Part shown: in pieces, positions 5,246 through 61,340 of the stretch
Layout: each line of letters opens with the position of its first letter
Position numbering within the stretch: position 1 is the first letter of the stretch
Source of the DNA: an uncultured Planctomycetaceae bacterium
GTDB taxonomy: Bacteria > Planctomycetota > Phycisphaerae > SM23-33
Assembly: GCA_964472875.1 (NCBI GenBank)
Contig: CAYYMD010000001.1
Span: 11,505 to 75,504 of the forward strand
Length of the DNA stretch: 64,000 nt
Direction of reading: 5' to 3'
Position numbers and translations under genes: made by a program
Notes under the pieces: model-generated
The model's database searches: none
What the model saw: the letters and a program-made list of their open reading frames with translations, nothing else
Told to the model about the DNA's origin: nothing

Positions 5246-6526
5246 CTACTTCGTCAGTTCTTTCCAGAGTGCCTGCTCGGCCTCGTCGAATCTGGAAAAA
5301 GTATTTTGTATCTGTTCCTTAATCTTCAGCATCTGCGGATCGTCGGCGGGGATACCTTCCGGATGCGCCTTTATCAGTCCTGCAAGCTTTGCCATCGCCT
5401 GGTCGAGCTCAGATGCCCCGGCCGAGAACGCCCTGGCTGCATCGTGTATATTCTGCGAGCGAAGTTCCTTGTCCTCCGGCCTGTACAGCAACCGCCACGG
5501 ACTTCGGCGGATTTCCTTGCTGGCGGATTTAAGGTTGGCCGAAACCTGGGCCATGTTATCTATAATCTCATCCACGTTGCCACGATGCATCAGAACGATT
5601 TCCTTGGCGTTTTTGGAAACCGTACCGAAGTTCTTGACTATCTGGAGCACCTCGGTGTTGGTCTTTCGAAGTTTTTTGAGGATTTCAGCTACATCATCCT
5701 TGGTATAGGTTTCGATGGCCTTGGTCGTTTTGACTATCGACGTTAGAGACTTGTCTATTTTCGGCCGGGCATCGGTGGTTATTTTTTTTATGTTCGTCAC
5801 GGCCACGTGCACCTTGGCGATGATGGAGTCATCGCTTTCGCGGTCGAGTTCGGTGCGAATCGAGGTGGTTGCTTTGTTTATATCGGCTACACTCTTGCCG
5901 ATTTTGGCCAGCAAAGAATCCACTTTCTCCGGATTAGTCTCGTTTTTAAGCGTCTTGGTGATATCTTTGATATCAGTCATTGCAGTCTTCATGGTGTCGA
6001 CAATTTCATGAATCTTTGCAATCAGCGCATTTTTGACCTTGGGATTCATTTCCTGCTTGAGCGACTTTGAAATATCGTCGAGATTAGCCATAACCCCCGC
6101 GCGCCTGAGTGCTATGGGATGTTTCTCATCAGCCGGGGGTTTTTCGCTGCTACCCCTATCTGTTATTACCAACAGTCCCCCACCAATAGGCGGGACCTTA
6201 GCATGGGCCCGGCCATCAGTGTATATTTCCATTCCCTCCCGCTCTATCCTGGCTACGTAAATTGTTCTGCTGCGGTCAGGATCGAAATAAATTTTCGTAA
6301 TTTTGCCTATCGCGTCATCGTTGACTCTGACTTCGTTACCGACCTCCAGCCCGACCGAACCGGTGGATTCCTCCACGTAAAAGTGCGCCTCGGACGCCGT
6401 CGGCGCGAAAACCTCTGCCACGCCAAGCCATAGCACCACGGCAATGGTTACAAGTAACGCCGCTATAACAAAAATTCCCGCTATCAGTTCATTGTGTTGT
6501 TTTTTCGCCATGATGCTTGTCTCCAA
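5246..6526 (-). CDS. MlaD/Mce-family substrate-binding protein (single N-terminal TM helix, MCE domain, long C-terminal coiled-coil extension)
   Basis: N-term TM LIAGIFVIAALLVTIAVVLWL; MCE-like core GNEVRVNDDAIGKITKIYFD...GGGLLVITDRG; ~280-aa K/E/T-rich helical tail; immediately downstream of the ABC ATPase and permease. Confidence 0.75.
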   Translation of the reverse strand: METSIMAKKQHNELIAGIFVIAALLVTIAVVLWLGVAEVFAPTASEAHFYVEESTGSVGLEVGNEVRVNDDAIGKITKIYFDPDRSRTIYVARIEREGMEIYTDGRAHAKVPPIGGGLLVITDRGSSEKPPADEKHPIALRRAGVMANLDDISKSLKQEMNPKVKNALIAKIHEIVDTMKTAMTDIKDITKTLKNETNPEKVDSLLAKIGKSVADINKATTSIRTELDRESDDSIIAKVHVAVTNIKKITTDARPKIDKSLTSIVKTTKAIETYTKDDVAEILKKLRKTNTEVLQIVKNFGTVSKNAKEIVLMHRGNVDEIIDNMAQVSANLKSASKEIRRSPWRLLYRPEDKELRSQNIHDAARAFSAGASELDQAMAKLAGLIKAHPEGIPADDPQMLKIKEQIQNTFSRFDEAEQALWKELTK

Positions 6527-6537
6527 TGATTAATCGC

Positions 6538-7398
6538 CTAAGACTCTGATACTGCGCCGAGTATATCTTCACGATACCCGGTACTGAGACGTCGGCGTGT
6601 AATAGGCCCGTCAGAGTCGCCTCGCAAAAACTGGCGGATTAGCTCCGTGGTTTCATCATCCGTAGGAGGACCGTCGCGGATTTCTTCGAACTCTTGGCGC
6701 GCTCCTATTTTCAAAATACGGCCGGCGTCGAGCATGGCCATGCGGTTTGCAATGGTGAATGCCGAGTCCATCTCGTGCGTAACGACCACAGATGTAACGC
6801 CAAGTTTACCCGAAAGATCCTTTATCAACTGATCGATTTCGGCCGAGGTCACCGGATCGAGTCCGGCCGAGGGTTCATCGTAGAAAAGTATCTCAGGGTC
6901 AAGTGCTATCGCCCGGGCCAGGCCCGCCCGCTTTTTCATGCCGCCGGAAATCTGGGCCGGCATAAGGTCAACCGCCCGCCGCATGCCCACTAATTCAAGT
7001 TTTATCCGTACGATAATGTCTATCGTGGCCTCGTCGAGGTCGCTGTGCTCCTTGAGCGGAAGGGCCACATTCTCGCCCACGGTCATAGAGTTGAAAAGGG
7101 CTCCGGACTGAAACAGTATGCCGAAACGCTTTCGTAGCGCATCCATCCGCTCTTCATCAAGCGAGGCGATATCCCTGCCGAAAATCTCCACTCTGCCCTC
7201 ATTCGGCACAAGCGAACCGATCATATGCCTCAGCAGCGTGCTCTTGCCGCACCCGGAGCCGCCCATGATGACCATCGTCTCCCCCGGGTATATGTTCAGG
7301 TTAACGCCGTCAAGGACAGGACGTGAATCGAACCGTTTGACCAGGTCGATCACACTTATGACGGGCTCGGGTTTTTGGTTTTCTTCAGGCATATTCAA
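6538..7398 (-). CDS. ABC transporter ATP-binding protein, MlaF-like
   Basis: Walker A GGSGCGKST, ABC signature ISGGMKKRAGLARA, Walker B ILFYDEPSAGLD; typical MlaF-length C-terminal extension. Confidence 0.85.
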   Translation of the reverse strand: MNMPEENQKPEPVISVIDLVKRFDSRPVLDGVNLNIYPGETMVIMGGSGCGKSTLLRHMIGSLVPNEGRVEIFGRDIASLDEERMDALRKRFGILFQSGALFNSMTVGENVALPLKEHSDLDEATIDIIVRIKLELVGMRRAVDLMPAQISGGMKKRAGLARAIALDPEILFYDEPSAGLDPVTSAEIDQLIKDLSGKLGVTSVVVTHEMDSAFTIANRMAMLDAGRILKIGARQEFEEIRDGPPTDDETTELIRQFLRGDSDGPITRRRLSTGYREDILGAVSES

Positions 7399-7471: not shown

Positions 7472-8296
7472 TTACAAACCAAACACGTAAAATACCATGG
7501 TAAACACGCACGCGGCGGATATTATCGCAACGATAGAATAAACAACTGTCATCGTAGTGGCCCTTCCGACTCCCTCTGCCCCACCACGGACGCTGAGGCC
7601 CTCGTAACAGGCGATAAGTGAAATAAGCACACCAAACACGCCACCCTGGATCAATCCGGTGTAAAAATCGCGATACAGTATTTGCTCCTGCATCCGCTGC
7701 CAGTAACCGACATACACCCGCGGGCCAAGTACGCCCCAGGCCGTTAGCCAGCCGCCGAAACCTATGACCACATCCGCAACAACCGTCAACAGCACCATCA
7801 CAACCAGCGTCGCCAGTACGCGTGGAACGACCAGGTAGCGGATGGGGTTCATGGCCATTGTCTCCATGGCCTCTATTTCCTCGCCGACAACCATCGTGCC
7901 AAGCTCAGCCGCTATGGACGCCCCCGCGAAGCCGCTTAGAACCACCGCGGTTATTATCGGCCCGAGCATACGGAAGCCCGCCTTGCCGATTATCAGCGAG
8001 ACCTGGTGCTCCTGTCCGTAGACCTTCAGGGGCGGTGTCATCTGAAGTGCCAGTATTACTCCTATGAACACCTGGACCAGCGCTACGATTGGCAGACTTT
8101 TGAGGCCGACCCGCACAATTTGCTTGCTGACCGCTTCACCGCGCAGATGAACCTTCCGCGAGAATATTCCTTTGCCGGCCCATTGAAACGTGGTCCCACC
8201 CAGCAGCGACATTCCACCGGTGTATCGCACGGCCGTTAGGAACCGTCGCCCCACAGCCCGGACAAAATCACCCAACATTCGACCGGAAGAACTCAT
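7472..8296 (-). CDS. ABC transporter permease, MlaE-like
   Basis: Polytopic membrane protein of 274 aa with MlaE-like organisation; sits between the STAS gene and the MlaF-like gene. Confidence 0.8.
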   Translation of the reverse strand: MSSSGRMLGDFVRAVGRRFLTAVRYTGGMSLLGGTTFQWAGKGIFSRKVHLRGEAVSKQIVRVGLKSLPIVALVQVFIGVILALQMTPPLKVYGQEHQVSLIIGKAGFRMLGPIITAVVLSGFAGASIAAELGTMVVGEEIEAMETMAMNPIRYLVVPRVLATLVVMVLLTVVADVVIGFGGWLTAWGVLGPRVYVGYWQRMQEQILYRDFYTGLIQGGVFGVLISLIACYEGLSVRGGAEGVGRATTMTVVYSIVAIISAACVFTMVFYVFGL

Positions 8297-8646
8297 GCAG
8301 TCATCGCCTCGTCAATACTATCGCAAATCTTAAAAATACCGTTAAGTCGTGTTATTTCGAAGAGACTTTTGACCCGAGGATTCAGGCCGGCCAGTACGAT
8401 TTTTGCGCCTGTCTTCCTGCTTCGCGACAGCAGTTTCACAAGCGACGCCAGGCCGGATGAGTCCATGTAGTTCACGCCATGCAGCGAAATCACAATACGC
8501 TGCGGGTTGCTGTTTAGAATTTTCAGCACCTCCTGCTGAAACGCCACACTGGAGGACATGTCGATATCACCTGTTGCGCTGACGATCGCGGTGGCGTCTT
8601 TCCAGTCGACTGACTCTATCGGTTGATTCACTGGAGTCTGGCTCAC
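8293..8646 (-). CDS. STAS-domain protein (anti-sigma-factor antagonist / MlaB-like) with canonical phosphorylatable Ser
   Basis: SpoIIAA-like fold motif VNYMDSSGLASLV (DSSG phospho-Ser motif); 4-nt overlap with downstream permease start and 4-nt overlap with upstream kinase stop. Confidence 0.8.
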   Translation of the reverse strand: MSQTPVNQPIESVDWKDATAIVSATGDIDMSSSVAFQQEVLKILNSNPQRIVISLHGVNYMDSSGLASLVKLLSRSRKTGAKIVLAGLNPRVKSLFEITRLNGIFKICDSIDEAMTA

Positions 8647-9146
8647 TTTAGCTCCTTCGAATCTGATGGTTCAAGCTGCTTTTCCATGGTCAGGACGGTC
8701 CCTCCGCCCTCGGCCGGATTGTATTCCACCCGGTCCATGAATTCTTTCATTATGTGCACGCCGAGCCCGCCGGGACGCACCTCGCCAAGGTCGCGAGATC
8801 GGATACGTTCTGCATCCACGTGTTTGCCGTAATCGCGTATGCGAATCCGCAATCCTCCCGGCGGCGCGGACAGCGGCGCCAGTTCGACCTCGATTCGCCC
8901 GTCGCCGGCACCGTCGTAGGCATGCCGGATAATATTGGTCAGCGCCTCATCCACGCTGACGCTGGCGCCGTGGGCGCCGTCTTCGTCAAAGCCGACCATA
9001 TTGCAGAAACGCCCCACCGCAGCCCTGACTACAGGCAGGTGCTCGGCCACCGACATTATCGTTATGCCAACAGTTTTATCCGCAAGTTCACTCATTTTGT
9101 TGTTTTTCTTTGGCCGGCCGTGTCCGGGGACCGGATGTTTTTTCAA
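8643..9146 (-). CDS. anti-sigma regulatory factor-type serine protein kinase (RsbW/SpoIIAB-like GHKL ATPase)
   Basis: N-box EALTNIIRHA; G-boxes IRIRDYGKHVD and RPGGLGVHIMKEFMD; alternative ATG at ~9095 (MSELADK) would remove overlap with upstream gene. Confidence 0.75.
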   Translation of the reverse strand: MKKHPVPGHGRPKKNNKMSELADKTVGITIMSVAEHLPVVRAAVGRFCNMVGFDEDGAHGASVSVDEALTNIIRHAYDGAGDGRIEVELAPLSAPPGGLRIRIRDYGKHVDAERIRSRDLGEVRPGGLGVHIMKEFMDRVEYNPAEGGGTVLTMEKQLEPSDSKELK

Positions 9147-9468
9147 GCCACCGACGCCAGCGTCTCACGGCCTCTGCCCGTTTGCAGGCGTCTTCATAAT
9201 GACAGTAGCCCATATTCTGCCCGGTAATTTTTCTCAGGGCCATTATTGCAAAAAATCGGACATCCGCCTCACTGTCCGTGAGACGGTCAACGAGAAAAGG
9301 CAAGGCCTTCTTGTCGTCGGTCTTTGCAGCCAGCTTGACGGCCTCGATTCGCCTGTCAGGGTCTTCAGACTGCAGGCCCTTGTAAATATCCATGTTACTT
9401 TCGGCACAACCACCGATTATGCACGTCACGTATATCTGCAAGAAACAAAACTTTCGAAATATGCTCAT
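9088..9468 (-). CDS. HEAT-repeat (PBS-lyase type) lipoprotein
   Basis: Lipobox-like CIIGGCAES after hydrophobic N-term; HEAT repeats DPDRRIEAVKLAAKTDD / DSEADVRFFAIMALRKITG. Confidence 0.5.
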   Translation of the reverse strand: MSIFRKFCFLQIYVTCIIGGCAESNMDIYKGLQSEDPDRRIEAVKLAAKTDDKKALPFLVDRLTDSEADVRFFAIMALRKITGQNMGYCHYEDACKRAEAVRRWRRWLEKTSGPRTRPAKEKQQNE

Positions 9469-12357: not shown

Positions 12358-13455
12358 CTATTTGCGGCTGGCGATTCTTTTCGTTTCTTCCATGACTGCA
12401 TTGACTATTTCGCCAACCGATATGGTGCGGATTTTTTGGCCGCGTCGGTATAAAACTGCCTTCTCGGCCCCGGCAGCGCAGACTGCTATGTCGGCATTAT
12501 CCGCCTCTCCCGGTCCGTTCACTACGCATCCCATCACTGCTACTGTCAACGGCACCTGCACGTCGGCCAGTGCCTCCTGTACTTTCTCCACTATCGGCAG
12601 CAATTCCATCCGTACCCGTCCACAGGTCGGGCATGCGATAATCTCCGGCCGCAGCCGTGGGCGAAGACGAAGACTCGCCAATAGCTCCACAGCGACACGC
12701 ACCTCCGTCACCGGATCACCCGCAAATGATAGCCGTATCGTATCACCTATGCCTTCGCTCAGCAGTGTTCCCACCGCCGCAGCCGACCTGACCACCGCCG
12801 TTTGAACAGGACCGGCGTGGGTTACGCCCAGATGAAGAGGGTAATCCCACCTCTCGGCCAGCAAGCGATTGGCCGCGACGGTTGTGAATGCGTCACGACT
12901 CTTGGCTGAAAGCACAATGTCGTTAAAATCCGCCCGTTGGAATTCCTCCAGGTATTCTTTAATTTTATCGGCCATGAGTTCCTCCAGTGGCCGGGACATA
13001 TCCGCCGTTCTGCGGGCCGAGTCCTTCCTCTCTACTACAGACCCTTCATTTACTCCAACGCGTATAGCCACCGAGTTATCGGCAGCGGCGGAGATGACTT
13101 CTCGCAACTGAGCAGGGTTAGATATATTTCCCGGGTTGAGGCGTATTTTTGCGGCCCCTGCGCTGATCGCCTCCAGGGCGCGTCGGTAATTAAAGTGTAC
13201 ATCCGCTATTATTGGCGTCGGCGAACGATCGACAATCTGCTCAAGGGCCTTTGTATCGTCCCTCGTGGGGACAGCGACGCGAACCAGATCGGCCCCAGCC
13301 TCTGCCAGCTGCTCAACCTGCGCGCAGGTCGCCTCAACGTCGGTAGTAGCGGTCTTGGTCATACTCTGAACGCTGACCGGTTCTCCGCCTCCGATGGCTA
13401 CCCCCCCAACCTGCACGCAACGGGAATCGCGCCTTTTTATGCGTGGATATTGCAC
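12358..13455 (-). CDS. ispG: 4-hydroxy-3-methylbut-2-en-1-yl diphosphate synthase (MEP pathway, GcpE)
   Basis: RRDSRCVQVGGVAIGGGEPVSVQSMT N-term; IIACPTCGR and MGCVVNGPGE Fe-S ligand motifs. Confidence 0.9.
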   Translation of the reverse strand: MQYPRIKRRDSRCVQVGGVAIGGGEPVSVQSMTKTATTDVEATCAQVEQLAEAGADLVRVAVPTRDDTKALEQIVDRSPTPIIADVHFNYRRALEAISAGAAKIRLNPGNISNPAQLREVISAAADNSVAIRVGVNEGSVVERKDSARRTADMSRPLEELMADKIKEYLEEFQRADFNDIVLSAKSRDAFTTVAANRLLAERWDYPLHLGVTHAGPVQTAVVRSAAAVGTLLSEGIGDTIRLSFAGDPVTEVRVAVELLASLRLRPRLRPEIIACPTCGRVRMELLPIVEKVQEALADVQVPLTVAVMGCVVNGPGEADNADIAVCAAGAEKAVLYRRGQKIRTISVGEIVNAVMEETKRIASRK

Positions 13456-13541
13456 AAAATTATCATACCCCCCTCACGTGACAAATAAAAGAGGCCGCTT
13501 TTGCAGCCCCTTTCGGTGAATCTTTGCTCATCTGGAAGAAT

Positions 13542-13781
13542 CTAAGCCCCGACCAGCTGAGTGCGGGCATGATGGCGGAAAGAAAGAACAAGATTCTTTG
13601 TCGACGCGCCTTCGCCCGAACCGGTGCACAAACGCGGCGAACGGGCTATATGAAGATGGCGGAGGTACTCATCGAGGTCTTCCTGGTCGAATTGAGCCAG
13701 AAATTCCGGCTTAGCCGAACGGTTCATGTTCAGTATCTGATCGATTGTCTGTCGTTTTGTCATTTTAGTATCCTTGCACAC
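13542..13781 (-). CDS. possible small hypothetical protein (79 aa) in the ispG/methyltransferase divergent spacer
   Basis: ORF only; helical-looking TIDQILNMNRSAKPEFLAQFDQEDLDEYLRHL segment; no recognisable family. Confidence 0.2.
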   Translation of the reverse strand: MCKDTKMTKRQTIDQILNMNRSAKPEFLAQFDQEDLDEYLRHLHIARSPRLCTGSGEGASTKNLVLSFRHHARTQLVGA

Positions 13782-13950
13782 TTAGAAAATATTTCAGAGA
13801 ACCACGAATTCTCTGGAATTTATCGGTTCACAGGCCATGATAACTTTAGGCCCAACGATTTCTGTTCACTCAAGTATTACTGGTTTGATGGACGAAATAC
13901 TTGTATACTGAAAGCATCAACAAGGAAGGCAAACCACACCAGGACAAGAC

Positions 13951-14838
13951 ATGAATATTGATACCTCGGATATAAATTTTGAGCGCCACGGGTCTGTTAG
14001 GAAAATTTTAAAGCGCTCGATGGTGAATCCACTGGCCAATTACCTGCCCGCCGGATTACTCAGGGGCCTTCTGCGTTTCGGTAAAAGTGAACTGGCCGCG
14101 GCGAACTGGACCGACCCTGGCGGTTGGAAGAGCATGATAATCAGCTACACCGGCAGGACCAGCCAGGTAGCCGACATACTGCTGCTTGCCGGTGGCACAC
14201 TTCATATGGCCCTGCGAAACCGCAGGCGACTGGCCGGAAAGATGCTTTCGGAACTTATAGACTCCAGCTCCAGCAAAAAACCGCACTTGCTTTCTCTCGG
14301 TGCCGGTCCGGGCCAGATTATCTTAGACGCCCTCTCGCAGGCAAAGTCTCCCGCAGAAGCAACTATGGTTGACCTTAATCCTGAGGCGTCGGATTATGGC
14401 CGCCAGCTGGCCGCGGACGCCGGTCTGGAAGACAGGATATATTACATAGTCGGCGACGTCCGAGATGTATCGGAGATGCTCTCCAAGCCGCCTGACGTAG
14501 TCGTCATGCTCGGGATATGCGAATACCTGACGGACCACCAGATCAGCAGTATCGCCAAAACGGTCTCAGAAGTTATGCCACATGGCTCATCGATTGTGTT
14601 TAACAGCATTTCGCCCGCCCACGGCACTGACAGGTTCTTCAGGCGGATATTCGGTCTGCATATGAATTACCGCACACCACAGGAATTGCAGAAATTGATC
14701 GGAGAGGGGGGATTTGGAGAGTTTGCCTCGATTCCCGAACCCCTCAACGTGTATCATGTTGTTGTAGGCCAGAGGCAGAAAATCTACACGCGGCAAGAAA
14801 ATACTGAACGTTCCCAAAACAGCGTGGTGAGCAAATAA
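13951..14838 (+). CDS. class I SAM-dependent methyltransferase
   Basis: Motif I LLSLGAGPGQ, acidic motif II TMVDLNPE, motif III IYYIVGDVRD, VVVMLGICEYL. Confidence 0.7.
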   Translation: MNIDTSDINFERHGSVRKILKRSMVNPLANYLPAGLLRGLLRFGKSELAAANWTDPGGWKSMIISYTGRTSQVADILLLAGGTLHMALRNRRRLAGKMLSELIDSSSSKKPHLLSLGAGPGQIILDALSQAKSPAEATMVDLNPEASDYGRQLAADAGLEDRIYYIVGDVRDVSEMLSKPPDVVVMLGICEYLTDHQISSIAKTVSEVMPHGSSIVFNSISPAHGTDRFFRRIFGLHMNYRTPQELQKLIGEGGFGEFASIPEPLNVYHVVVGQRQKIYTRQENTERSQNSVVSK

Positions 14839-14872
14839 ATCCACGCACCCTGTTAATAAGGGCGCCCGTCAA

Positions 14873-16207
14873 ATGGCCAACGTATCACTACCCTGGAATA
14901 AAGGCGAAATCACACTGGATCTTCCGCAAAACTGGACGGTTCAGCAGACCGCTACTCCTAACCTGCCCAAGGCGCCTCAGGACTGGCGCGAACGTCTGGC
15001 CAGGGCGTGCGCGCGGGGAGAACCCGGAGATTCTTTGTCCGAACTTGCGACGGAGGCCGCCAGACATAACTGGCCAGTGGCTCTTATCGTCGAAGACCTC
15101 ACAAGACACAGCCCCCTGGCGGATATAATGGACATCCTCATGCGGGAAATGCGTCACGCGGGAGTGAAGGACGAACAGATAGAGATTGTATTTGCCGTGG
15201 GCATGCATCCGCCCATGACACCCCCGCAAGCTCGTGAGAAATTGGGGGCTTCATGTGATGGGGTTAAATTCACCAGTAACCCCTGGAATGACCCGACAGC
15301 ATACAAACACCTGGGGAGAATCGGGAAAACCGAAGTCTGGGTCTATCGCCCAGTGGCAGAAGCACAACTGCGCTTAGTTGTATCTTCAGTCTCACCGCAC
15401 CTACAGGCAGGTTTCAGCGGCGGATATAAAATGATTTTTCCGGGCTGCGCGAACCTGAAAACCATTCGTTCGCTGCATAAACTCGGAGTAAGCTCGACAC
15501 CGCGGCAATTAGTCGGCACGGATGCAGACCGGAATCCGATGCGCGAGACCTTAGACGCCGCCGGCGAACTGCTTGACCGCCACGGTGGTCGTACATTCAC
15601 TGTACAATATCTTCTGGATGATAAGGATATGCCGGCAGTAATCGCCACAGGGGCCGCCACTCCGACCCAGCGTATGCTTGCCAAGCAATGCGCCGTGGGA
15701 TGCGGGACGGTCATGGACGCTCCCTCCGATGTCCTCATTACAAACGCATATCCCCGCAATGTCGACCTGTGGCAATCGTTTAAGTGCATTATAAACACCC
15801 TGTGGGCGCTGAAACCCAATGGTGTGATAATATGCACCACCCCCTGCCCCATGGGTACAAATAACATGGATATCCCGCGCTGGCCTATCAGCGCGGCATG
15901 GACGCGGCGGTTTATACGATTGCTGGGACACGAGGCGCTGTATAACCTGCTTACGCGACTGGTGCCTTCACTGGGCGGAGAAGCGGAATTTTTTGTACGC
16001 ATGGCTCTTCAGACCATACATCGTAACCCCGTATTATTGGCCTCTCCCACCCTTGCCGAACAGCAGCTCCGTTTTCCGGCGATGGAAATTTACGCGCAGC
16101 CCCAGGATGCCGTTGAGGCGGCTGCAAGACTCCTTGGTGACGGCCCGCAGCGTGTATCAGTATTCCCTGCCGGAGGAATTACTTTCCCGGTTATGCCGTC
16201 GCAGTAA
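14873..16207 (+). CDS. LarA-like protein (lactate racemase / DUF2088 family; nickel-pincer-cofactor enzyme family)
   Basis: ~440 aa; VSPHLQAGFSGGYKMIFPG resembles the LarA His...GF-GG-K cofactor-tethering region; substrate unknown. Confidence 0.55.
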   Translation: MANVSLPWNKGEITLDLPQNWTVQQTATPNLPKAPQDWRERLARACARGEPGDSLSELATEAARHNWPVALIVEDLTRHSPLADIMDILMREMRHAGVKDEQIEIVFAVGMHPPMTPPQAREKLGASCDGVKFTSNPWNDPTAYKHLGRIGKTEVWVYRPVAEAQLRLVVSSVSPHLQAGFSGGYKMIFPGCANLKTIRSLHKLGVSSTPRQLVGTDADRNPMRETLDAAGELLDRHGGRTFTVQYLLDDKDMPAVIATGAATPTQRMLAKQCAVGCGTVMDAPSDVLITNAYPRNVDLWQSFKCIINTLWALKPNGVIICTTPCPMGTNNMDIPRWPISAAWTRRFIRLLGHEALYNLLTRLVPSLGGEAEFFVRMALQTIHRNPVLLASPTLAEQQLRFPAMEIYAQPQDAVEAAARLLGDGPQRVSVFPAGGITFPVMPSQ

Positions 16208-16221
16208 AATCAGAAAATACT

Positions 16222-17475
16222 ATGAAGCCGCACAAAACCACAAAAATTCATGACCTGCAGAAGGTTCTGGAAATTACGCGATCGATGGTTGCTGCCGAGG
16301 ATTTGCACTCGCTTCTGCAACTTATTATTGACAGGAGCATGGAACTTCTCGACGCCGAGCGTGCTTCTCTGTTTCTCTACGACCCCGACAATAATGAACT
16401 GTACAGCCGCATAGCCGCCGGCGTTGAGGAAATTCGCGTGCCCGCCAACAAAGGTATCTCCGGCGCTACCGTGAAAACGGGAAACACGATCAACGTCGCC
16501 GATGCATACGGCGATTCGAGGTTCAATCCGGATGTGGACAAACGTACGGGGTACCGCACACGAAACATCCTTTCGACTCCTCTGAGCGACCATATGGGCA
16601 ATCTGGTGGGCGTTCTACAGGTCATAAACAAGCGCAGCGGCAATTTCAGTGACTACGACGAGATGCTGGCAGAAACGCTCGGCGCTCAGGCGGGAGTAGC
16701 TATACAACGCGCTAATCTTATCGAACATTTCATGCAGAAACAGAGGATGCAGCGGTCACTTGAAATCGCCCACGAAATTCAGCAGGGCCTGTTACCGAGA
16801 GGGCAGGCGGCTATATCCGCATTTGACGTATCCGGCATCTGCGTGCCGGCCGATGAAACCGGCGGCGATATATACGACTTTCTCGAACTTCCCGGCGGCA
16901 ACTGGATGTTTATGGTCGCCGACGCTACGGGACACGGCGTCGGCCCTGCACTGATTGTAGTTCAAACCAGGGCCATGCTGCGGGCGGTGAGCATGTGCCA
17001 CGATACGTTACCCGTTGTAATGCAAACCGCAAATAACTTGCTTGTCAGGGACTTGCAATACACCCGCTTCGTGACGTGCTTCATGGGAATCCTGTCGCCG
17101 GATAACAGCCAACTCACGTATGCTTCCGCCGGCCATGGGCCAATGCTTTTCTACAGGCGCTGCGAGGATAAGTTCACAGAGGTTGCGGCTACGGCTCTGC
17201 CGTTAGGGGTGGATGAAGAAACTGCATACGATGAAATGGAATCTTTCAGTTTTACCTCAGGTGACTTCGTTGTAATCACCACCGATGGAGTTTTCGAAGC
17301 CGAGAACCCGGAGGGCGAGCAATTCACTATGGAACGCGTCAAAAAAGTTCTACACGAACACAGGGACTCACCGACGTCCGAGATGATAAGCACGCTTCGC
17401 GACAAAGTTAAGGATTTCACGAAATCTTCCATCCAAGGTGATGATTTAACGGCCCTGATTATTCGTAAAGACTAA
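16222..17475 (+). CDS. GAF-sensor PP2C-family (SpoIIE/RsbU-type) serine phosphatase
   Basis: N-terminal GAF (ERASLFLYDPDNNELYSRIAAG...GISGATVKTG); C-terminal PPM domain SLEIAHEIQQGLLP..GGDIYDF..MVADATGHGVGPAL..TTDGVFEAEN..GDDLTALI. Confidence 0.8.
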   Translation: MKPHKTTKIHDLQKVLEITRSMVAAEDLHSLLQLIIDRSMELLDAERASLFLYDPDNNELYSRIAAGVEEIRVPANKGISGATVKTGNTINVADAYGDSRFNPDVDKRTGYRTRNILSTPLSDHMGNLVGVLQVINKRSGNFSDYDEMLAETLGAQAGVAIQRANLIEHFMQKQRMQRSLEIAHEIQQGLLPRGQAAISAFDVSGICVPADETGGDIYDFLELPGGNWMFMVADATGHGVGPALIVVQTRAMLRAVSMCHDTLPVVMQTANNLLVRDLQYTRFVTCFMGILSPDNSQLTYASAGHGPMLFYRRCEDKFTEVAATALPLGVDEETAYDEMESFSFTSGDFVVITTDGVFEAENPEGEQFTMERVKKVLHEHRDSPTSEMISTLRDKVKDFTKSSIQGDDLTALIIRKD

Positions 17476-17510
17476 ATCCGCTTCACCGCAATTTTTGAGT
17501 TTGGCGGATT
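17475..17510. terminator. candidate bidirectional terminator: inverted repeat aaatccgc...gcggatt between convergent PP2C and folE genes
   Basis: 7-bp perfect inverted repeat with ~21-nt interior, T-rich middle; read by eye. Confidence 0.3.
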
Positions 17511-18087
17511 ATTTGCCCGTGAGCAGTTTGATAGCCTCGGTCCGTGTAGCAAGATTCGTCTTGAACAGGCCCCGCATAGCTGATGTGACCATTGTGGCGC
17601 CGGGTTTGTGCACGCCGCGAATTGTCATACAAGTGTGCGTGGCTTCGACTATCACACCCACACCTTTGGCGTCAAGTTCCTTCATCAGCAGGTCGGCTAT
17701 CTGACTTGTCAGACGTTCCTGCACCTGAGGACGGCGGGCGAAAGACTCCACCACCCGGGCGAGTTTGCTAATCCCCACAACCCTTCCCAGTGGCAGATAA
17801 GCCACATGCGCCTTTCCCATAAAGGGTAGAAGGTGGTGTTCACACATGGAATAAAATGCTATGTCCCGCAGGACTACCATTTCGTCATATTGCTCGTCGA
17901 AATGAGCGACTATGTGCTCAGCTGGCTCCTGAAACAAGCCCACAAAAACTTCGGCGTACAGGTTAGCAACCCGCCTCGGTGTATCCTTGAGACCCTGGCG
18001 AGCCGGGTCTTCGCCCACGGCTTCGAGTATTTGTCTGACCGCCTGTTCTATGGCGGCCGTGTCTATTTTTTGTTCTTTAGATGCCAT
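17509..18087 (-). CDS. folE: GTP cyclohydrolase I (FolE type I)
   Basis: GLKDTPRRVANLY, MCEHHLLPF, VAYLP..VVGISKLARVV conserved FolE blocks. Confidence 0.9.
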   Translation of the reverse strand: MASKEQKIDTAAIEQAVRQILEAVGEDPARQGLKDTPRRVANLYAEVFVGLFQEPAEHIVAHFDEQYDEMVVLRDIAFYSMCEHHLLPFMGKAHVAYLPLGRVVGISKLARVVESFARRPQVQERLTSQIADLLMKELDAKGVGVIVEATHTCMTIRGVHKPGATMVTSAMRGLFKTNLATRTEAIKLLTGK

Positions 18088-52818: not shown

Positions 52819-54036
52819 TTATTGCGCAACTACGTTTGAGAGTTTGAACACCGGCAGAAGCAGCGCTATGGCTATGCCACCGACTATAAGCCCCATTATG
52901 ATTATCATAGCAGGTTCTATAAGAGATGTGATGGCCTTGACCGACACAGACAGTTCCTCCTCGCAGAAGTCCGCCGCCTTCTCCAGCACTCCGGACAGTC
53001 GGCCGGTGCGCTCCCCCGCGTCTATCATTTGAGTCAAGGTCCGTGGAACCAGTTCATATTCGAAGAGCCGCTCCGAAAGCGTCGAGCCGGTCTTGACCTG
53101 TTCGGACAGGTCCGTCCACATCTGTGAATAATAATAGTTACCCGAAACCTCCGCGGTAATCTGCAGCCCTTCCAGGATTCCCACATCCGTAGAAACCATC
53201 GTGGCCAAAGTACGCATGGATCTGGCAAGAGAGGCCTTCCGGTACATAGGTCCTATTATCGGCATGTTAATTTTAATCTTGTCCAGCAGGATGCTTCCTT
53301 TTTGCGACCTGAAGTACATGTAAACGCCTACTATTATGGCAGCTACCGCCGGAATAAGCAGATACCAGTAATCCGTCATGGCGTGGCTGATGTATAGAAG
53401 GATTTGTGTCGGTGCAGGCAAAACGGCGCCTTTGCCGCTGTAAATTTTCTCGAAACGAGGCAGCACCAGCGTCAGCAGCGCAATGATGACTATGGTACAG
53501 AAACTCAACATACATATCGGATACGTCATGGCGCCTTTTATCTGTTTGCGGGTCTTTCTCTCCGACTGCATGTACTGGCTGGCCCGCTGAAGCATCTGCC
53601 CCATTGTTCCCGAGGCCTCGGAGGCCCGCACCAAAGCAACGAAAAGTTTCCCGAACACTTTGGGATGACTCTCCATCGCCGAAGATAGTGTCTGCCCGGC
53701 CTTAACCTGCTCGGACAGGTCGCCGACCACCTCCGTAAGCTCCGGCTTGTCCGACTGCTGGGCGATGGCGTCCAACGCCTCATCCAGCGGGACTCCCGTA
53801 TCAACCATAACCGCCAGTTGGGTGGAAAAGAATATGACCTGGTCGCGCTTTATCTTTTTTCTTCGGCCAGTGGTACCGGTGGTGTCCGATGCCTGTTCTT
53901 GATGCGGGCGAATTGAAACTACGGACTTGCCCTCTCGCCTGAGCATACCGGCGGCTTCGTCCTTGTCCCTCGCGGCCAGGACACCGGCGTCCATTCTTCC
54001 TCCTCCCATACGTGCGTGATAAGCAAATTTAGGCAT
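52819..54036 (-). CDS. type II secretion / type IV pilus platform protein (GspF/PilC family)
   Basis: 405 aa inner-membrane protein with two T2SS-F repeats; adjacent to GspE/PilB ATPase. Confidence 0.85.
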   Translation of the reverse strand: MPKFAYHARMGGGRMDAGVLAARDKDEAAGMLRREGKSVVSIRPHQEQASDTTGTTGRRKKIKRDQVIFFSTQLAVMVDTGVPLDEALDAIAQQSDKPELTEVVGDLSEQVKAGQTLSSAMESHPKVFGKLFVALVRASEASGTMGQMLQRASQYMQSERKTRKQIKGAMTYPICMLSFCTIVIIALLTLVLPRFEKIYSGKGAVLPAPTQILLYISHAMTDYWYLLIPAVAAIIVGVYMYFRSQKGSILLDKIKINMPIIGPMYRKASLARSMRTLATMVSTDVGILEGLQITAEVSGNYYYSQMWTDLSEQVKTGSTLSERLFEYELVPRTLTQMIDAGERTGRLSGVLEKAADFCEEELSVSVKAITSLIEPAMIIIMGLIVGGIAIALLLPVFKLSNVVAQ

Positions 54037-54085
54037 TTTCAGACATTCCGTGTTTGCACATAGCTTATTTAGGCGAGTCCTGCGG

Positions 54086-55882
54086 CTAAGCCGCCGTGGC
54101 CCTGAATACCTCCTCCACAGTGGTTATACCGGCCGCTACTTTAGACATGCCGTCCTGTCGGAGAGTTACCATACCGCGTTCTATCGCAGCGGCCCGGATT
54201 TCGTCCCGCGTAGCCCCGGCATTGATTTTTTCAGTTATCTCGTCGTCCGGAACAAGCAGTTCGTAAATTCCTATTCGTCCTCCGTAACCGGTGCTGCGGC
54301 ATTTCTGGCATCCTGCGCCCCTGTAAAATTTTTCCACTTGCCCCACTTCCCGTTCGACTGCGCGTCGTATGCCCGCCGAGGGTTCGTAGGGCTCCTTGCA
54401 ATTGGTGCAGATTTTTCTGACCAGCCGCTGGGCCAGAACCGCCTCCGTGGAAGCGGCCACGAGGTAGGGCTCCACACCTATATTAACCAGGCGAGTGACC
54501 GCACCGGGCGCGTCGTTGGTGTGCATTGTGCTGAAGACCAGGTGACCCGTAAGCGCCGCCTGCACTGCAATCCGGGCCGTCTCTTCATCGCGTATCTCGC
54601 CCATCATTATAATGTCCGGGTCCTGTCGAAGCAGCGACCGCAGCGCCGAAGCGAACGAGAAACCGATACGCTCGTTAACCTGGAACTGGTTAACGCCGGT
54701 GAGATTGTATTCGACCGGGTCCTCCACAGTGCATATGTTCACCTGCTCGTTGCACAATTCATTAAGGACGCTGTAAAGGGTGGTGCTCTTGCCGCTTCCG
54801 GTCGGGCCGGTTACCAGGACAATTCCGTTGGGCACAGTTATCACCTTCCGCCAGGTCTTGAGCGTCTCATAGGCGAAACCGAGTTTCTCAAGATTCACGA
54901 GAACCCGGCGGTTGTCGATTATCCTGATGACCACTTTTTCGCCGTGCTGGCCGGGCATGGTGCTTACGCGCAGGTCGATAGGCCGGCTGTTCATCAGCAC
55001 GTGTATGCCGCCGTCCTGCGGCAAACGCCGCTCGGAGATATCCAGGCCCGCCATAATCTTAATCCGGCTGACAATAGCGGGAAGCATTTTGTAGGGTGGC
55101 TTCAGTTTCTCGAATAAAATACCATCCACCCTGTATCGCACGCGCAAAGAATTTTCATCCGGTTCGATATGTATGTCGGAAGCCCCCTCCCTGACGGCGT
55201 TGAACAGCAGATAATTTACCAGTTTGACCACCGGCGAACCTTCCGCCGCCGCCTCCAGGTCTGTTATGTCCTCTATCTTGTCTTCGACTATGGATACCTC
55301 ATCCGGCATCTCATCTTCGAATATATCGTCTATGACAAATACATTTGCCGAGGGAAGGTGAGTCTCCAGGGTGGCCTTTATATCGTTGCCGGTAGCGCAT
55401 ACCACCAGCACTTCACATCCGGTCAGACGAGCCACTTCTTCCATAAGGAATACATTGGCTGGCTCGTTAACGGCCAGTGAAAGGCGGTTTCTGACCTTGA
55501 ACAGCGGAAGTACAGTATGTTTGTCGAGAAATTCCCGGGGCAGCACATCGATAATTCTCGGGTCGGCCAGTCTTGGAGATATCCTGGCAAACGGAACGCC
55601 ATACCCAGCCGCCAGCGCCTGCATGATTTGCTCTTCGGTACATATCTCGAGTTTCTGAAGAACTTCGCCGAGCAGCAGATTACTTCCTGAATTTCGCTGA
55701 TAGTCCAGTGCCTCTGCGAGCTGCTCCTCGTTCAAGGTACCCTGCCTTATGAGCAACTGGCCCAGAGGCAGGGCGGACTTGGAGCCGGGACGCACTGGCC
55801 TGTTCGCTTCCTGAGAAGAACCCTCAGAAGCCACATGGACCTGCTCCGGGTCGGCGTTATTGTCTTCTGCTTTTGAAATCAT
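54086..55882 (-). CDS. type II secretion / type IV pilus assembly ATPase (GspE/PilB family) with N-terminal MshEN-like domain
   Basis: Walker A GPTGSGKST, Asp/His boxes, Zn tetracysteine CTNC...CQKC; N-terminal T2SSE_N with tandem LGxxLIxxGxLxxxxLxxALxxQ-like motifs. Confidence 0.9.
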   Translation of the reverse strand: MISKAEDNNADPEQVHVASEGSSQEANRPVRPGSKSALPLGQLLIRQGTLNEEQLAEALDYQRNSGSNLLLGEVLQKLEICTEEQIMQALAAGYGVPFARISPRLADPRIIDVLPREFLDKHTVLPLFKVRNRLSLAVNEPANVFLMEEVARLTGCEVLVVCATGNDIKATLETHLPSANVFVIDDIFEDEMPDEVSIVEDKIEDITDLEAAAEGSPVVKLVNYLLFNAVREGASDIHIEPDENSLRVRYRVDGILFEKLKPPYKMLPAIVSRIKIMAGLDISERRLPQDGGIHVLMNSRPIDLRVSTMPGQHGEKVVIRIIDNRRVLVNLEKLGFAYETLKTWRKVITVPNGIVLVTGPTGSGKSTTLYSVLNELCNEQVNICTVEDPVEYNLTGVNQFQVNERIGFSFASALRSLLRQDPDIIMMGEIRDEETARIAVQAALTGHLVFSTMHTNDAPGAVTRLVNIGVEPYLVAASTEAVLAQRLVRKICTNCKEPYEPSAGIRRAVEREVGQVEKFYRGAGCQKCRSTGYGGRIGIYELLVPDDEITEKINAGATRDEIRAAAIERGMVTLRQDGMSKVAAGITTVEEVFRATAA

Positions 55883-55950
55883 ATCGTGGTCAACCTATTA
55901 AAAAGTTTTCTCCAAGCCGGCGTCTGACCAACCGAAACTGCCTGTTTGCC

Positions 55951-56334
55951 TCACGTCGGCAAGCGCTCTTTAATCGCCTCCTCGCTGTTTTTATAGGTCT
56001 CAAAGGCCGAATCCAGTCGCGTGATTTCAAGTATCTTGCTTATGTTCTCATCACATCCGCACAACCTGAGGCGTCCCATGCGTTCGGCCAGTGTGTCCTG
56101 CAGGTCCAGAAAATATTCCAGCGCCGCACTATCAATGGCAGGAACGTTATGGAGATCCAGAACTATGTCGATTATCCACGGCTCTGCTCCGGCATTTTCC
56201 GGCGAAGATTGCCCCCTATCCTCCTCCAGTTGATGTTCGACCGTTCGGATAAGCTGTTCCAGCGAATCCTCGGTAAGCTCTCCTTTAATGGAAAGTATGG
56301 CCGCATGACCATATGTCTCTGTAGTTATGTTCAT
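55951..56334 (-). CDS. STAS-domain protein (anti-sigma-factor antagonist-like)
   Basis: SpoIIAA-like fold; HNVPAIDSAALEYFLDL motif; 4-nt overlap with upstream HD-GYP gene stop. Confidence 0.75.
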   Translation of the reverse strand: MNITTETYGHAAILSIKGELTEDSLEQLIRTVEHQLEEDRGQSSPENAGAEPWIIDIVLDLHNVPAIDSAALEYFLDLQDTLAERMGRLRLCGCDENISKILEITRLDSAFETYKNSEEAIKERLPT

Positions 56335-58022
56335 ATTTCACTCTCCGAGGCAGCACCAGCTATTCCCTCCAGTTCACACGGAGCCCCTGAGCCGATTTTA
56401 AAGGAACTTCTTCGGCCGATATTGCTGACGAATTCGCTCAAATCTATTGAAAGCAGCCTTTCGGCCAGGGCCGGGTCGAACTGTGTGCCCGCATGGCTTT
56501 TTATTTCTTCTATGGCCTCTTCCAGCGGAAGTGCTTTGCGATAGGTTCTGTCGGTAATCATCGCATCGAGACAATCCGCCAGACCTACAATCCTGCCCTC
56601 TATGGGTATCTGTTCTCCGGCCAGTTGCCGGGGGTATCCTTTGCCGTCAGGACGTTCGTGGTGTGTCAAAATTCCCCTGGCCACGCCCCGCCATTGGCGA
56701 AAACCACCAATGATTTTGGCGCCGGTGACGGGATGCTGTTTAATCTTTTCGAATTCGGCTCTGCTCAGTCGGTTCGTCTTTCGCAGCGTCTCTTCGGGCA
56801 CTCCAATCTTTCCTATGTCGTGCAGCAGCCCGGCGAGATAAACCTGCTTTACCTTCTCAGCATCCAGGCCGGATTCTTCGGCCAGCCGTTTGGATATAAG
56901 CGCCACTCGCTGTGAATGGCCGCTGGTGTACGGATCCTTGGCGTCAATCGAGGCAGTCAGCGCGTGCAGTACGCCTATAAGCAAATCCTGCAGGTCGGCA
57001 TAAAGCATGCTGTTGGCCAGGAACACGCCGGTCTGATTGGCAATGGAACTGAGCAACTGGAGGTCGGCGCTGTTAAAGTCGCCGGATAGTTTTTCGGCAC
57101 CTATTAACAACCCGACCTGTCTGTCCTCAGCAACAATAGGCACGGCCACCAAACCGCGCCTGGGTTCTTCGACGCCCTGGGCCGTTGGTATAGGAAACTG
57201 ATTATCCAGTAAAACGCGACGGCCTGAATCCATTCTCCGGTTTATCTCCTCCGCCAATCGCAGTATTTTTTCATCGGAGACCTTTTCCTGACCTGCCCTG
57301 ACCACCATGTTTTCTTCCCGTCGCTGTCGCTGGGGGTGAACAACAGCCCACGCGGCCGATATGTTCATTACCTCCAGCAGTTCGTTACATGCGTTCTGAA
57401 GGAAATCCCCTACCTGCTGGGTCACCTTTATGGAACCGCTTATTCTATATACCAGCGATAGTTCTTCATAAGTTCTGGCCAGGTTGGTGCTCATCGTGGC
57501 CAGTTCATCATCGGCGATTTGTTCGTTTAGCAGGTGCTCCAGCAGCCAACCCAATATACTGATGATATGTTCGGCCTGGGATGCGCTGTGTCGGCAGTAT
57601 TTTTCGGCGGCATTTCTGGTCGCCTGGCGGTCAAGATGGAGATGATCGCACATTCGCGAAAAATGTTCTTCTTCAAGAATTTCAAGGGGCGGGAAACACG
57701 CCACCACCGCGCCGGCTATACGTCTTCGCCGACGGACAGGCACGCCCAGCTGAAAACAGCCCGTCCGGCATTGATTTATGATGTTATTTCGCTGGGCCAT
57801 CGCCTTTTCAGCGACATCCTGAGCGCTTTGCCTGCAGGGCGCTTCGGCGCCGAGCATGAAGCGGCAGAACCTGCCGGAGGGACAGAAACCTTCTGCGCAT
57901 CTGCCGGTTTCGTCCCATGTCGAAAGATGCAGGCCCAACCGCTCCATGCGGGCGCGTAGCTCCTCGGCTACCGCTTTGGGAAGCGGTAGAATCCTCTGTG
58001 AGGCCGTTTCCAGTCTACTCAT
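56331..58022 (-). CDS. multi-domain HD-GYP c-di-GMP phosphodiesterase (Cys-rich N-terminal region + GAF + HD-GYP)
   Basis: HD-GYP signature LHDIGKIGVPEE...HHERPDGKGYP; preceding GAF-like domain; N-terminal CxxxCPSGRFCRF...CRQ...CRTGC. ORF is open to 58223 but ATG at ~58022 (MSRLETAS) overlaps the receiver stop as ATGA. Confidence 0.8.
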   Translation of the reverse strand: MSRLETASQRILPLPKAVAEELRARMERLGLHLSTWDETGRCAEGFCPSGRFCRFMLGAEAPCRQSAQDVAEKAMAQRNNIINQCRTGCFQLGVPVRRRRRIAGAVVACFPPLEILEEEHFSRMCDHLHLDRQATRNAAEKYCRHSASQAEHIISILGWLLEHLLNEQIADDELATMSTNLARTYEELSLVYRISGSIKVTQQVGDFLQNACNELLEVMNISAAWAVVHPQRQRREENMVVRAGQEKVSDEKILRLAEEINRRMDSGRRVLLDNQFPIPTAQGVEEPRRGLVAVPIVAEDRQVGLLIGAEKLSGDFNSADLQLLSSIANQTGVFLANSMLYADLQDLLIGVLHALTASIDAKDPYTSGHSQRVALISKRLAEESGLDAEKVKQVYLAGLLHDIGKIGVPEETLRKTNRLSRAEFEKIKQHPVTGAKIIGGFRQWRGVARGILTHHERPDGKGYPRQLAGEQIPIEGRIVGLADCLDAMITDRTYRKALPLEEAIEEIKSHAGTQFDPALAERLLSIDLSEFVSNIGRRSSFKIGSGAPCELEGIAGAASESEI

Positions 58023-58429
58023 GCTCCCTCCGCAATTTTTTTGACACCGGCTGTAATAAGTTCGTCGACCTTCCCAAGTACCTGGCGTGGCGAGAACGGT
58101 TTGGCCAGGACCCCCACAATGCCGGCGGCTGTCATTTCCGCCGGCTCGAGGTCGAAACCGCGTGCGGTAAGCATAATAGCCGGTATCCCCTCCGTGCGTT
58201 GTTCGGCTCGCAGACGCTGGCAAAGTTCCAAACCGGTAATCACCGGCATCTGGTAATCGGTGATAATAAGGTTCGGCCGCTGTTCCCGGGCCAGTTCAAG
58301 CGCTTCCTCACCATCTACGGCCGTGAGCACATCGTAACCGGCATTTTTTAGCTTTAGCGAAAGAACGTTGAGAATGTGGGATTCATCATCGGCGATTAAT
58401 ACTTTTCCGCGGTTATGCGACATATTCAT
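58019..58429 (-). CDS. stand-alone response-regulator receiver domain protein (CheY-like)
   Basis: DDESHIL...LIITDYQMP (phospho-Asp), MLTAR, LAKPF; no output domain. Confidence 0.85.
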   Translation of the reverse strand: MNMSHNRGKVLIADDESHILNVLSLKLKNAGYDVLTAVDGEEALELAREQRPNLIITDYQMPVITGLELCQRLRAEQRTEGIPAIMLTARGFDLEPAEMTAAGIVGVLAKPFSPRQVLGKVDELITAGVKKIAEGA

Positions 58430-58520
58430 CTCCCTTTAAACCTCCCTGCCGAGTCAGTCCCTCCTGCTGCGGCAGGCATAAGCTACTCCTTTTATTTATC
58501 GTTACAATACGGCGGCGTCT

Positions 58521-59963: not shown

Positions 59964-60010
59964 TACCTTGGTTGCCTCCTGTGGGCCTCTTTTCCGTCGA
60001 CGGCTGAGAT

Positions 60011-61246: not shown

Positions 61247-61340
61247 GGTTTTGCTCCCGGCGACTCTAAGCCGCCAAATTCAGTATCTTTCTTAGAACTC
61301 CCTAATTAACGCGCAAGTCTAAAATTTTTTACGTGTGAGA

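Follow-up and report, generated by a model that had tools for sequence, protein, structure and literature searches.

Three closely spaced genes in a planctomycete contig raise the question of whether they form one functional unit, and whether the phosphatase encoded by the last of them acts on STAS proteins encoded elsewhere on the same contig. The genes occupy positions 13951-17475 of a 64,000-nt stretch of DNA from an uncultured Planctomycetaceae bacterium (GenBank assembly GCA_964472875.1, contig CAYYMD010000001.1; the whole stretch is called the window). They encode a class I S-adenosylmethionine methyltransferase (MTase; 13951-14838, plus strand, 295 aa), a LarA homologue (LarAH; 14873-16207, plus strand, 444 aa), and a GAF-PP2C protein, a Ser phosphatase of the SpoIIE/RsbU-type PPM family (16222-17475, plus strand, 417 aa). 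An earlier reading made from the sequence alone (the sequence-only reading) had described them as a compact trio and had proposed the PP2C as the natural phosphatase for the two STAS proteins of the window. Our analysis favors, with a probability of about 0.5, two functional units that probably share a transcript: the MTase-LarAH pair and the GAF-PP2C, for which the best substrate candidate in the window is STAS1, encoded in an RsbW-STAS1-Mla operon. The members of the trio are of known kinds, namely an unnamed LarAH group with its MTase partner, plus a GAF-PP2C. As a lead, the RsbW-STAS-MlaEFD operon, located outside the coordinates of the trio, is of greater interest. Statements on ligands, substrates, and interactions were drawn from sequence, structure prediction, and gene neighborhood.

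The methyltransferase-LarA homologue pair

The three genes are real and not chance open reading frames (ORFs), because each protein has hundreds of full-length orthologues conserved at 52-80% identity, all from Phycisphaerae/Planctomycetota assemblies; this distribution places the source of the window in the class Phycisphaerae. The intergenic gaps of 34 nt (14839-14872) and 14 nt (16208-16221) are exactly those given in the sequence-only reading, and its family assignments were all correct according to Pfam and NCBIfam: Methyltransf_25/Methyltransf_20 for the MTase, which has an N-terminal helical cap, Lar_N (PF09861, E 2.3e-34) for LarAH, and GAF (1e-19) with SpoIIE (PF07228, 3.5e-44) for the PP2C. 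The base composition across the region is unremarkable. No Rfam match at E ≤1 was found upstream of or inside the trio over 13300-17700, and promoter and terminator scans at the trio gave counts no better than those of shuffled sequences.

A scan of species-representative genomes across Phycisphaerae yielded 73 orthologous LarA loci (42-80% LarA identity) and 5 distant loci. Among 72 informative loci, 70 have the MTase gene immediately upstream of LarA, and only L063 and L078 do not. For the GAF-PP2C gene, 62 loci were informative: in 22 it comes directly after LarA, and the other 40 keep MTase-LarA without a PP2C next to it. These counts, together with the presence of the PP2C elsewhere in other genomes, indicate a pair plus a separable phosphatase, not a conserved trio. 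The description as a compact trio therefore holds for co-directional adjacency in the window and fails for a conserved unit. The stable unit consists of the MTase and LarAH, with a small divergent ORF, and the GAF-PP2C is a facultative, probably co-transcribed neighbor. In the distant LarA homologues (30-32% identity, e.g., Singulisphaera), neither the MTase nor the PP2C adjoins LarA. LarA-PP2C fusion proteins were also considered and rejected; the spanning stop-free ORFs seen in several loci are in other frames and are high-GC artefacts. The trio defines a class-wide, single-copy LarAH group that is paired with an MTase.

A closer union of the three genes, in which the GAF domain senses a metabolite of the MTase-LarAH pair or the PP2C controls these two enzymes, would make the trio one functional operon. 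The genes share a strand, and the estimated LarA-PP2C junctions range from -11 to +126 nt and measure 26 nt or less in 18 of the 22 loci, with 14 nt in the window. The adjacency persists at a LarA divergence of about 50%. The PP2C tree contains one orthologous family. Copies linked to LarA branch at its base and those linked to a cyclase (described below) form a derived subclade, so the position next to LarA is the older, ancestral arrangement. Certain GAF domains bind 2-oxo or organic acids, which would suit such a sensor. Nevertheless, we judge a single operon to be distinctly unlikely. The 40 loci that keep MTase-LarA without the phosphatase stand against it, and the housekeeping genes folE-queG, which directly follow the PP2C or LarA itself in several loci, show comparable residual synteny; some general synteny therefore persists in the LarA region. 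The unit also contains no STAS substrate, since the STAS gene found beside LarA in L029 and L044 belongs to an opposite-strand lipopolysaccharide (LPS)-core operon. In the LarA tree, PP2C-bearing loci are scattered through the crown clade, and none occur in two other clades.

The small ORF (13542..13763, minus strand; 73 aa, starting MTKRQTIDQI) is conserved, has no assigned family, and diverges from the MTase gene. By tblastn, about 45 orthologous loci (e.g., L009, L012, and L074) have it upstream of the MTase gene. The N-terminal 55 aa or so of the family is strongly conserved (MTKRQLIDEI..N.TA.P.FLA.F...L.EYL.HL...PRLSGD..RY..YF), and full-length orthologues have a C-terminal WLF/WLY after a variable, acidic tail of low complexity. 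The copies of the window and L006 are shortened to 73-79 aa, with the tail missing. The family has no Pfam or NCBIfam match.

The alignment to the LarAH6 model covers LarAH residues 5-440 and model positions 2-414 out of 415. The score against LarAH6 (malate racemase), the best among the curated families, is 172.7 bits against a cut-off of 500, and the LarA model gives 136 bits against a cut-off of 460. The protein falls below the cut-off of every named family tested (LarA, LarAH5, H6, H10, H14-16, and H18), so it is a superfamily member of an unnamed, uncharacterised group. The best PDB match is Mar2 (6d6z), with a profile E of 1e-42.

For residue mapping, a 22-sequence LarAH family profile was aligned to solved structures. 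LarAH D75 and R78 correspond to D72 and R75 of L. plantarum LarA, H112 and H176 to the catalytic His108 and His174, K186 to the cofactor-tethering Lys184, and H202 to the nickel ligand His200; R78, Q301, and K304 correspond to the carboxylate/substrate-binding Arg75, Gln295, and Lys298. All of these residues are invariant in the 22 orthologues, and the key codons are at 15206-15208 (H112), 15398-15400 (H176), 15428-15430 (K186), and 15476-15478 (H202) on the plus strand. The lysine of the GFSGGYK motif, which the sequence-only reading had picked out as a possible cofactor residue, is this K186. That reading had also named loss of the lysine and histidines in an alignment to L. plantarum LarA as the outcome that would speak against it; the alignment instead contains equivalents of D72, R75, H108, H174, K184, H200, Q295, and K298. 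Judged by residue conservation, the nickel-pincer-nucleotide (NPN) site is intact, and LarAH is predicted to be an NPN-dependent 2-hydroxyacid racemase/epimerase. With the catalytic and cofactor residues kept, proton-coupled hydride transfer on a 2-hydroxy acid would be the expected chemistry. LarAH shares Lar_N, full-length collinearity, and all key residues with L. plantarum LarA (5huq/6c1w) and with Mar2/LarAH (6d6z). However, it is only about 25-30% identical to them, it is nearly always paired with an MTase, and its pocket is changed; relative to L. plantarum LarA, F175/F176 are replaced by L/Q, R183 by Y, Y294 by W, and V297 by F.

The sequence-only reading had remarked that larB, larC, and larE are not nearby, and this was borne out: no LarB/LarC/LarE-type families were found among the non-ribosomal window ORFs checked with Pfam. 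Clustering of recurrent neighbors likewise revealed no larBCE in the flanks of the 73 orthologous LarA loci, where the recurring genes were limited to MTase, LarA, PP2C, folE, queG, and a further methyltransferase-like ORF. The lack of nearby larBCE would be explained if LarAH were not a nickel-pincer enzyme but a degenerate or repurposed domain, which would also fit the failure to reach any curated LarAH cut-off and the existence of certain LarAH groups in which catalytic or NPN-binding residues are missing and which were judged unlikely to depend on NPN (PMC7583248). We consider this highly improbable for LarAH, since its NPN-binding, nickel-binding, and catalytic residues are all invariant in the 22 orthologues. 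Moreover, the absence of larBCE is ordinary because LarAH genes are usually unlinked from them; in most LarAH groups, the genomic context is peculiar to the group and indicates substrate-related genes, not LarB/C/E (PMC7583248). LarAHs are present in 86% of sampled Planctomycetota genomes, at about two per genome (PMC11770544). The cofactor genes would be located elsewhere in the genome, as is usual for the LarA superfamily.

In the MTase, the motif I LGAGPG, D141, and D169 are invariant, and a confident structure model with fold matches predicts a Rossmann-type class I fold. Its NCBIfam matches are all at or below 27 bits against cut-offs of 78-600, so no characterised family was reached, and its best structural neighbor, 3ocj, is itself uncharacterised. 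Two assignments were rejected. The best PDB sequence match was to DsyB, a 2-hydroxyacid S-methyltransferase, and the fold matches include SgvM, a 2-oxoacid C-methyltransferase. Both look attractive beside a LarA homologue, but the scores (30 bits, 13-20% identity) reflect generic Rossmann-fold similarity, as does the similarity to DnrK. In the scheme we propose, LarAH would most likely invert the C2 stereocenter of a 2-hydroxy acid, and the MTase would most likely act on the same metabolite. As far as its supplementary tables go, a published 25-group LarAH context analysis has no methyltransferase among the neighbor COGs. The MTase-LarAH pair is a clean target for a new nickel-pincer-dependent reaction and a follow-up methylation.

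The two orthologous LarA loci without an MTase are at 1-1872 of L063 and 1962-3223 of L078. L078 still has the small divergent ORF, at a distance of about 400 nt from LarA, but the MTase gene is missing from the space between the two. A normal MTase-LarA contig (L075) is present in the same metagenome-assembled genome, and the L078 LarA may be either an additional copy or a strain variant.

The GAF-PP2C phosphatase and its likely input

The GAF domain of the PP2C was placed by Pfam at residues 27-161 (about 16300-16704, plus strand) and the SpoIIE phosphatase domain at residues 224-415 (about 16891-17466, plus strand). The phosphatase should be active, because the metal-binding aspartates D216, D234, D355, D407, and D408 are invariant in 25 orthologues. 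Within the family, identity is higher in the GAF domain (57-81%) than in the phosphatase domain (45-74%).

The GAF region (residues 11-185) has PDB matches with E values of 8e-34 to 1e-18. The closest is the GAF of the HD-GYP protein PmGH (4mcw, 8e-34), and further matches include the cAMP/cGMP-binding GAFs of CyaB2 and PDE2/5/10. An NKFDE-type motif is present as N136-K137...F142...D146-E147. The window GAF resembles in sequence, and in the NK...F...DE motif of the window copy, the cyclic nucleotide (cNMP)-binding GAFs of Anabaena CyaB2 and PDE2A/PDE5/PDE10 and also the GAF of the Persephonella protein PmGH, and its family includes cyclase-adjacent orthologues. It differs from them in that the output domain is a PP2C, not a cyclase or phosphodiesterase, and in the variability of the last motif residue. 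Given this resemblance, cAMP or cGMP would be the most likely GAF input.

The genomic context was also viewed from the phosphatase side, using 8 PP2C orthologues on long contigs (about 56-63% identity). One is part of a trio (L087), three stand alone in unrelated contexts (L085, L086, and L168), and four are associated with a cyclase. In L169, L170, and L171, a gene for a CHASE2 protein with a class III nucleotidyl cyclase domain (Guanylate_cyc) is convergent with the PP2C gene at a distance of 8-18 nt, and in L084 a CHASE2 cyclase gene is 4.3 kb from it. These cyclases have 900-1000 aa (L169 11263-13989; L170 9580-12468; L171 11268-14267; L084 12585-15257), and each is encoded by the last gene of an operon that runs Alginate_exp-like porin, unknown, FecR, and cyclase. 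The cyclase-adjacent orthologues and the tree support a cyclic nucleotide as the GAF ligand, and the arrangement suggests a pathway from cyclase through cNMP to GAF-PP2C at the cyclase-linked loci. The orthologues in unrelated contexts indicate that the phosphatase works independently of the MTase-LarAH pair. Both these contexts, three of them directly against a cyclase gene, and the resemblance of the GAF to cNMP-binding GAFs count further against a single operon in which the GAF would sense the metabolite of the pair. The GAF-PP2C is thus probably a separable signaling phosphatase, probably responsive to cyclic nucleotides, whose placement next to LarA is old and was frequently lost.

Two homologues of the PP2C with very high scores, P0242 (583 aa) and P0244 (635 aa), exceed the 417-aa norm by 170-220 residues. 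The added length may correspond to a further GAF, N-terminal or in tandem.

The RsbW-STAS1-Mla operon as a candidate target

An all-six-frame profile search of the 64 kb detected one SpoIIE, one RsbW, and two STAS proteins, which agrees with the inventory of the sequence-only reading; the kinase and STAS genes are on the minus strand. The kinase and STAS1 belong to an operon, all on that strand, that begins with a HEAT-repeat protein (9088..9468; HEAT_2 3e-9), continues with the RsbW/SpoIIAB-type Ser kinase (8643..9146 as the longest ORF, with the gene caller start at 9095; HATPase_c_2 2e-24) and the SpoIIAA-type anti-sigma-antagonist-like STAS1 (8293..8646; STAS 7e-22), and further contains MlaE (7472-8296; Pfam MlaE 2e-63), an MlaF-like ABC ATPase (6538-7398; ABC_tran 2e-31), and an MlaD/MCE protein (5246-6526; MlaD 1.4e-6). 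The kinase/STAS1 and STAS1/MlaE junctions have 4-nt overlaps, and the STAS1 stop overlaps the MlaE start. The sequence-only reading had seen a partner-switching toolkit with no sigma factor as an obvious output. There is indeed no sigma factor in the RsbW-STAS1 operon or among the window ORFs examined. However, an output is not lacking, since STAS1 is translationally coupled to MlaE-MlaF-MlaD, and this coupling, seen in many lineages, makes the missing output of the partner switch visible. An Mla-type lipid transporter, not a sigma factor, is the likely output of RsbW-STAS1.

STAS1 scores 85 bits against the NCBIfam ant_ant_sig model (cut-off 53), and the kinase scores 59 bits against NCBIfam RsbW, below the cut-off of 145. 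Ser63 in the YMDSSGL motif of STAS1 aligns with the phosphorylated Ser58 of SpoIIAA and with TM1442, and D-S-S is invariant in all 65 STAS homologues that follow an RsbW. STAS1 also has a PDB similarity to MlaB with an E of 0.0015. A metagenome scan with the window kinase gave 80 loci. Of the informative ones, 55 of 62 have a STAS gene after the kinase gene, and 35 of 40 have the order RsbW-STAS-MlaE. The HEAT gene is directly upstream of RsbW in all nine informative close relatives (9/9), and a PP2C gene is present in none of these.

A SpoIIE gene is in the cluster at 12 of the 55 RsbW-STAS loci, all of them in distant relatives. In L119, L123, L132, L138, L141, L161, and L163, it immediately precedes the kinase gene. 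It follows MlaD co-directionally in L147, L152, and L154, and in L122 and L130 it is carried by the opposite strand. By Pfam, the order in L138 is GAF-SpoIIE, RsbW, STAS, MlaE, and MlaF, and that in L147 is RsbW, STAS, MlaE, MlaF, MlaD, ABC_trans_aux, and PAS-SpoIIE. Since a PP2C gene is part of the same operon in some distant taxa, a PP2C partner is to be expected for STAS1.

The window proteins share with the B. subtilis RsbU-RsbV-RsbW and SpoIIE-SpoIIAA-SpoIIAB systems the SpoIIE aspartates, an N-terminal sensor, an RsbW-type kinase, and the SpoIIAA-type STAS serine. They differ in that the phosphatase is encoded outside the kinase/STAS operon and has a cNMP-type GAF sensor, and in that the STAS gene is coupled to a transporter. 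As in E. coli MlaFEDB, a STAS protein is encoded together with MlaE, MlaF, and MlaD in a single operon, and the similarity of STAS1 to MlaB is weak but significant. Unlike MlaB, STAS1 is full-length and SpoIIAA-like, has the invariant DSSG serine and its own RsbW-type kinase, and is accompanied by an operon PP2C in other taxa. No kinase is known for E. coli MlaB, whose phosphoregulation is so far a hypothesis (PMC7367683). The phosphomimetic Thr52Glu weakens the binding of MlaB to MlaF, and Kolich et al. called phosphoregulation an open question, with no experimental evidence of Thr52 phosphorylation (PMC7367683). Kinases do not feature in a phylogenomic survey of Mla (PMC10665443). In the parts of the literature drawn on here, the Anabaena HenR phosphatase/STAS module, with a glycosyltransferase target, and Vibrio SypE/SypA likewise combine a Ser phosphatase/kinase and STAS with a non-sigma target; in the same comparison, the target proposed for the window differs in being an MCE/Mla ABC transporter. 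We found no description of a phospho-controlled RsbW-STAS-MlaEFD operon in the literature searched, and no paper combining partner-switching, MlaE, and STAS. The RsbW-STAS1-Mla operon has the appearance of an MCE lipid transporter system whose MlaB-type regulator is controlled by phosphorylation, and RsbW-STAS-MlaEFD operons offer a natural kinase/phosphatase pair for testing the phosphoregulation of MlaB-type STAS proteins.

We propose that the window PP2C, like other SpoIIE/RsbU phosphatases, would most likely dephosphorylate a STAS protein, and that STAS1 would receive its phosphate, on Ser63, from the adjoining RsbW-type kinase. Dephosphorylated STAS1 would then act in an MlaB-like manner on the MlaE-MlaF-MlaD transporter or free the transporter from RsbW, so that the output of the switch would be lipid transport and not a sigma factor. 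The assignment of the GAF-PP2C as the phosphatase for STAS1 is tentative, and we put it somewhat short of an even chance. In its favor, no other PP2C is encoded in the window, and the GAF+SpoIIE layout of this one matches that of the phosphatase in the Mla operon of L138. A sample of Phycisphaerae DNA totaling 823 kb contained 1 extra SpoIIE, 2 STAS, and 0 RsbW; such genes are therefore sparse, each genome should offer few candidates, and the window is locally dense. In addition, separate searches found the GAF-PP2C family in many assemblies of Phycisphaerae or relatives, and likewise the HEAT-RsbW-STAS-Mla operon. The full chain, a partner switch of kinase, STAS1, and GAF-PP2C with cNMP input and Mla transporter output tied to the 2-hydroxyacid pathway, is more doubtful. 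It would tie envelope lipid transport to a 2-hydroxyacid modification pathway because the PP2C would be co-transcribed with the MTase-LarAH pair.

Several observations weigh against this assignment or against parts of the chain. RsbW/STAS1 are 7 kb from the PP2C in the window and on the opposite strand, and no PP2C-RsbW/STAS linkage within 6-10 kb was seen in the 22 LarA-linked and 8 other orthologous loci, nor in the reverse direction. The Mla-linked PP2Cs of other taxa are 25-36% identical to the window PP2C and are outgroups to its family. A PAS-SpoIIE paralogue is present in the relative L012, and PAS-type PP2Cs also accompany Mla operons (L147), so a different PP2C could serve STAS1. In 22 divergent genomes, LarA and the PP2C gene abut closely and often overlap, a classic signature of functional coupling that argues against the PP2C being a mere neighbor of LarA. 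On the transporter side, STAS1 scores 36.9 bits against the NCBIfam MlaB model, below the cut-off of 90, and it aligns to the very end of the full-length STAS protein TM1442 and is not a minimal MlaB. On the input side, the N of the NKFDE-type motif is invariant across the PP2C family and the F and D are conserved at ≥90% (at least 90%), but the E is variable, and no nucleotidyl cyclase of the CHASE2 type was found in the window or at any LarA-linked locus.

These points also bear on a different explanation, in which the PP2C substrate, another STAS or a non-STAS protein, is encoded elsewhere, RsbW-STAS1 is reset by another phosphatase, and the 7-kb proximity is coincidental. The missing linkage in the lineage, the L012 paralogue, the PAS-SpoIIE genes that close the Mla operons of L147, L152, and L154, and the non-orthology of the Mla-linked GAF-PP2Cs would all suit it. 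Nevertheless, we regard it as unlikely, given the short list of candidates per genome, the separate recovery of the GAF-PP2C and of the HEAT-RsbW-STAS-Mla operon from many assemblies attributed to Phycisphaerae or close relatives, and the use of the same GAF+SpoIIE architecture by Mla operons elsewhere. Of the proposal that the PP2C serves both STAS proteins, what stands is a plausible, indirect link to STAS1 only; it is not supported for STAS2, which has DSAA and no kinase in its cluster, and it has no linkage in the lineage behind it.

A different, incomplete-looking module was noted in other taxa. L121 (5655-7387), L127 (5679-7402), and L143 (2896-4598) each have a GAF-SpoIIE gene followed by an RsbW-type kinase gene with a 4-nt overlap, and no STAS or Mla gene is downstream.

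STAS2 and other STAS genes

The second STAS protein, STAS2 (55951..56334, minus strand; STAS 1.8e-15), is divergent, with DSAA instead of DSSG and weak PDB matches only. It lies in a minus-strand cluster (52819-63407) that encodes a secretin (61341-63407), a TPR protein (60011-61246), a PAS histidine kinase (58521-59963), a PocR-GAF-HD-GYP protein (56331-58223) on one side of STAS2, a T2SSE ATPase of the type II secretion/type IV pilus kind (54086-55882) on the other side, and T2SSF (52819-54036). There is no RsbW-type kinase in this cluster; the sole copy in the window is about 47 kb away. STAS2 may regulate the adjoining secretion/pilus ATPase.

The STAS gene that comes after LarA in L029 and L044 was considered as a partner-switching link and rejected, because it belongs to a convergent LPS-core operon and the two genomes are related. 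This operon (L029 7238-11731; L044 3075-3428) comprises a WaaP/Kdo-type kinase, a GT9 heptosyltransferase, DUF2062, DUF2617, and STAS, and a link of this STAS protein to LPS-core synthesis is possible.

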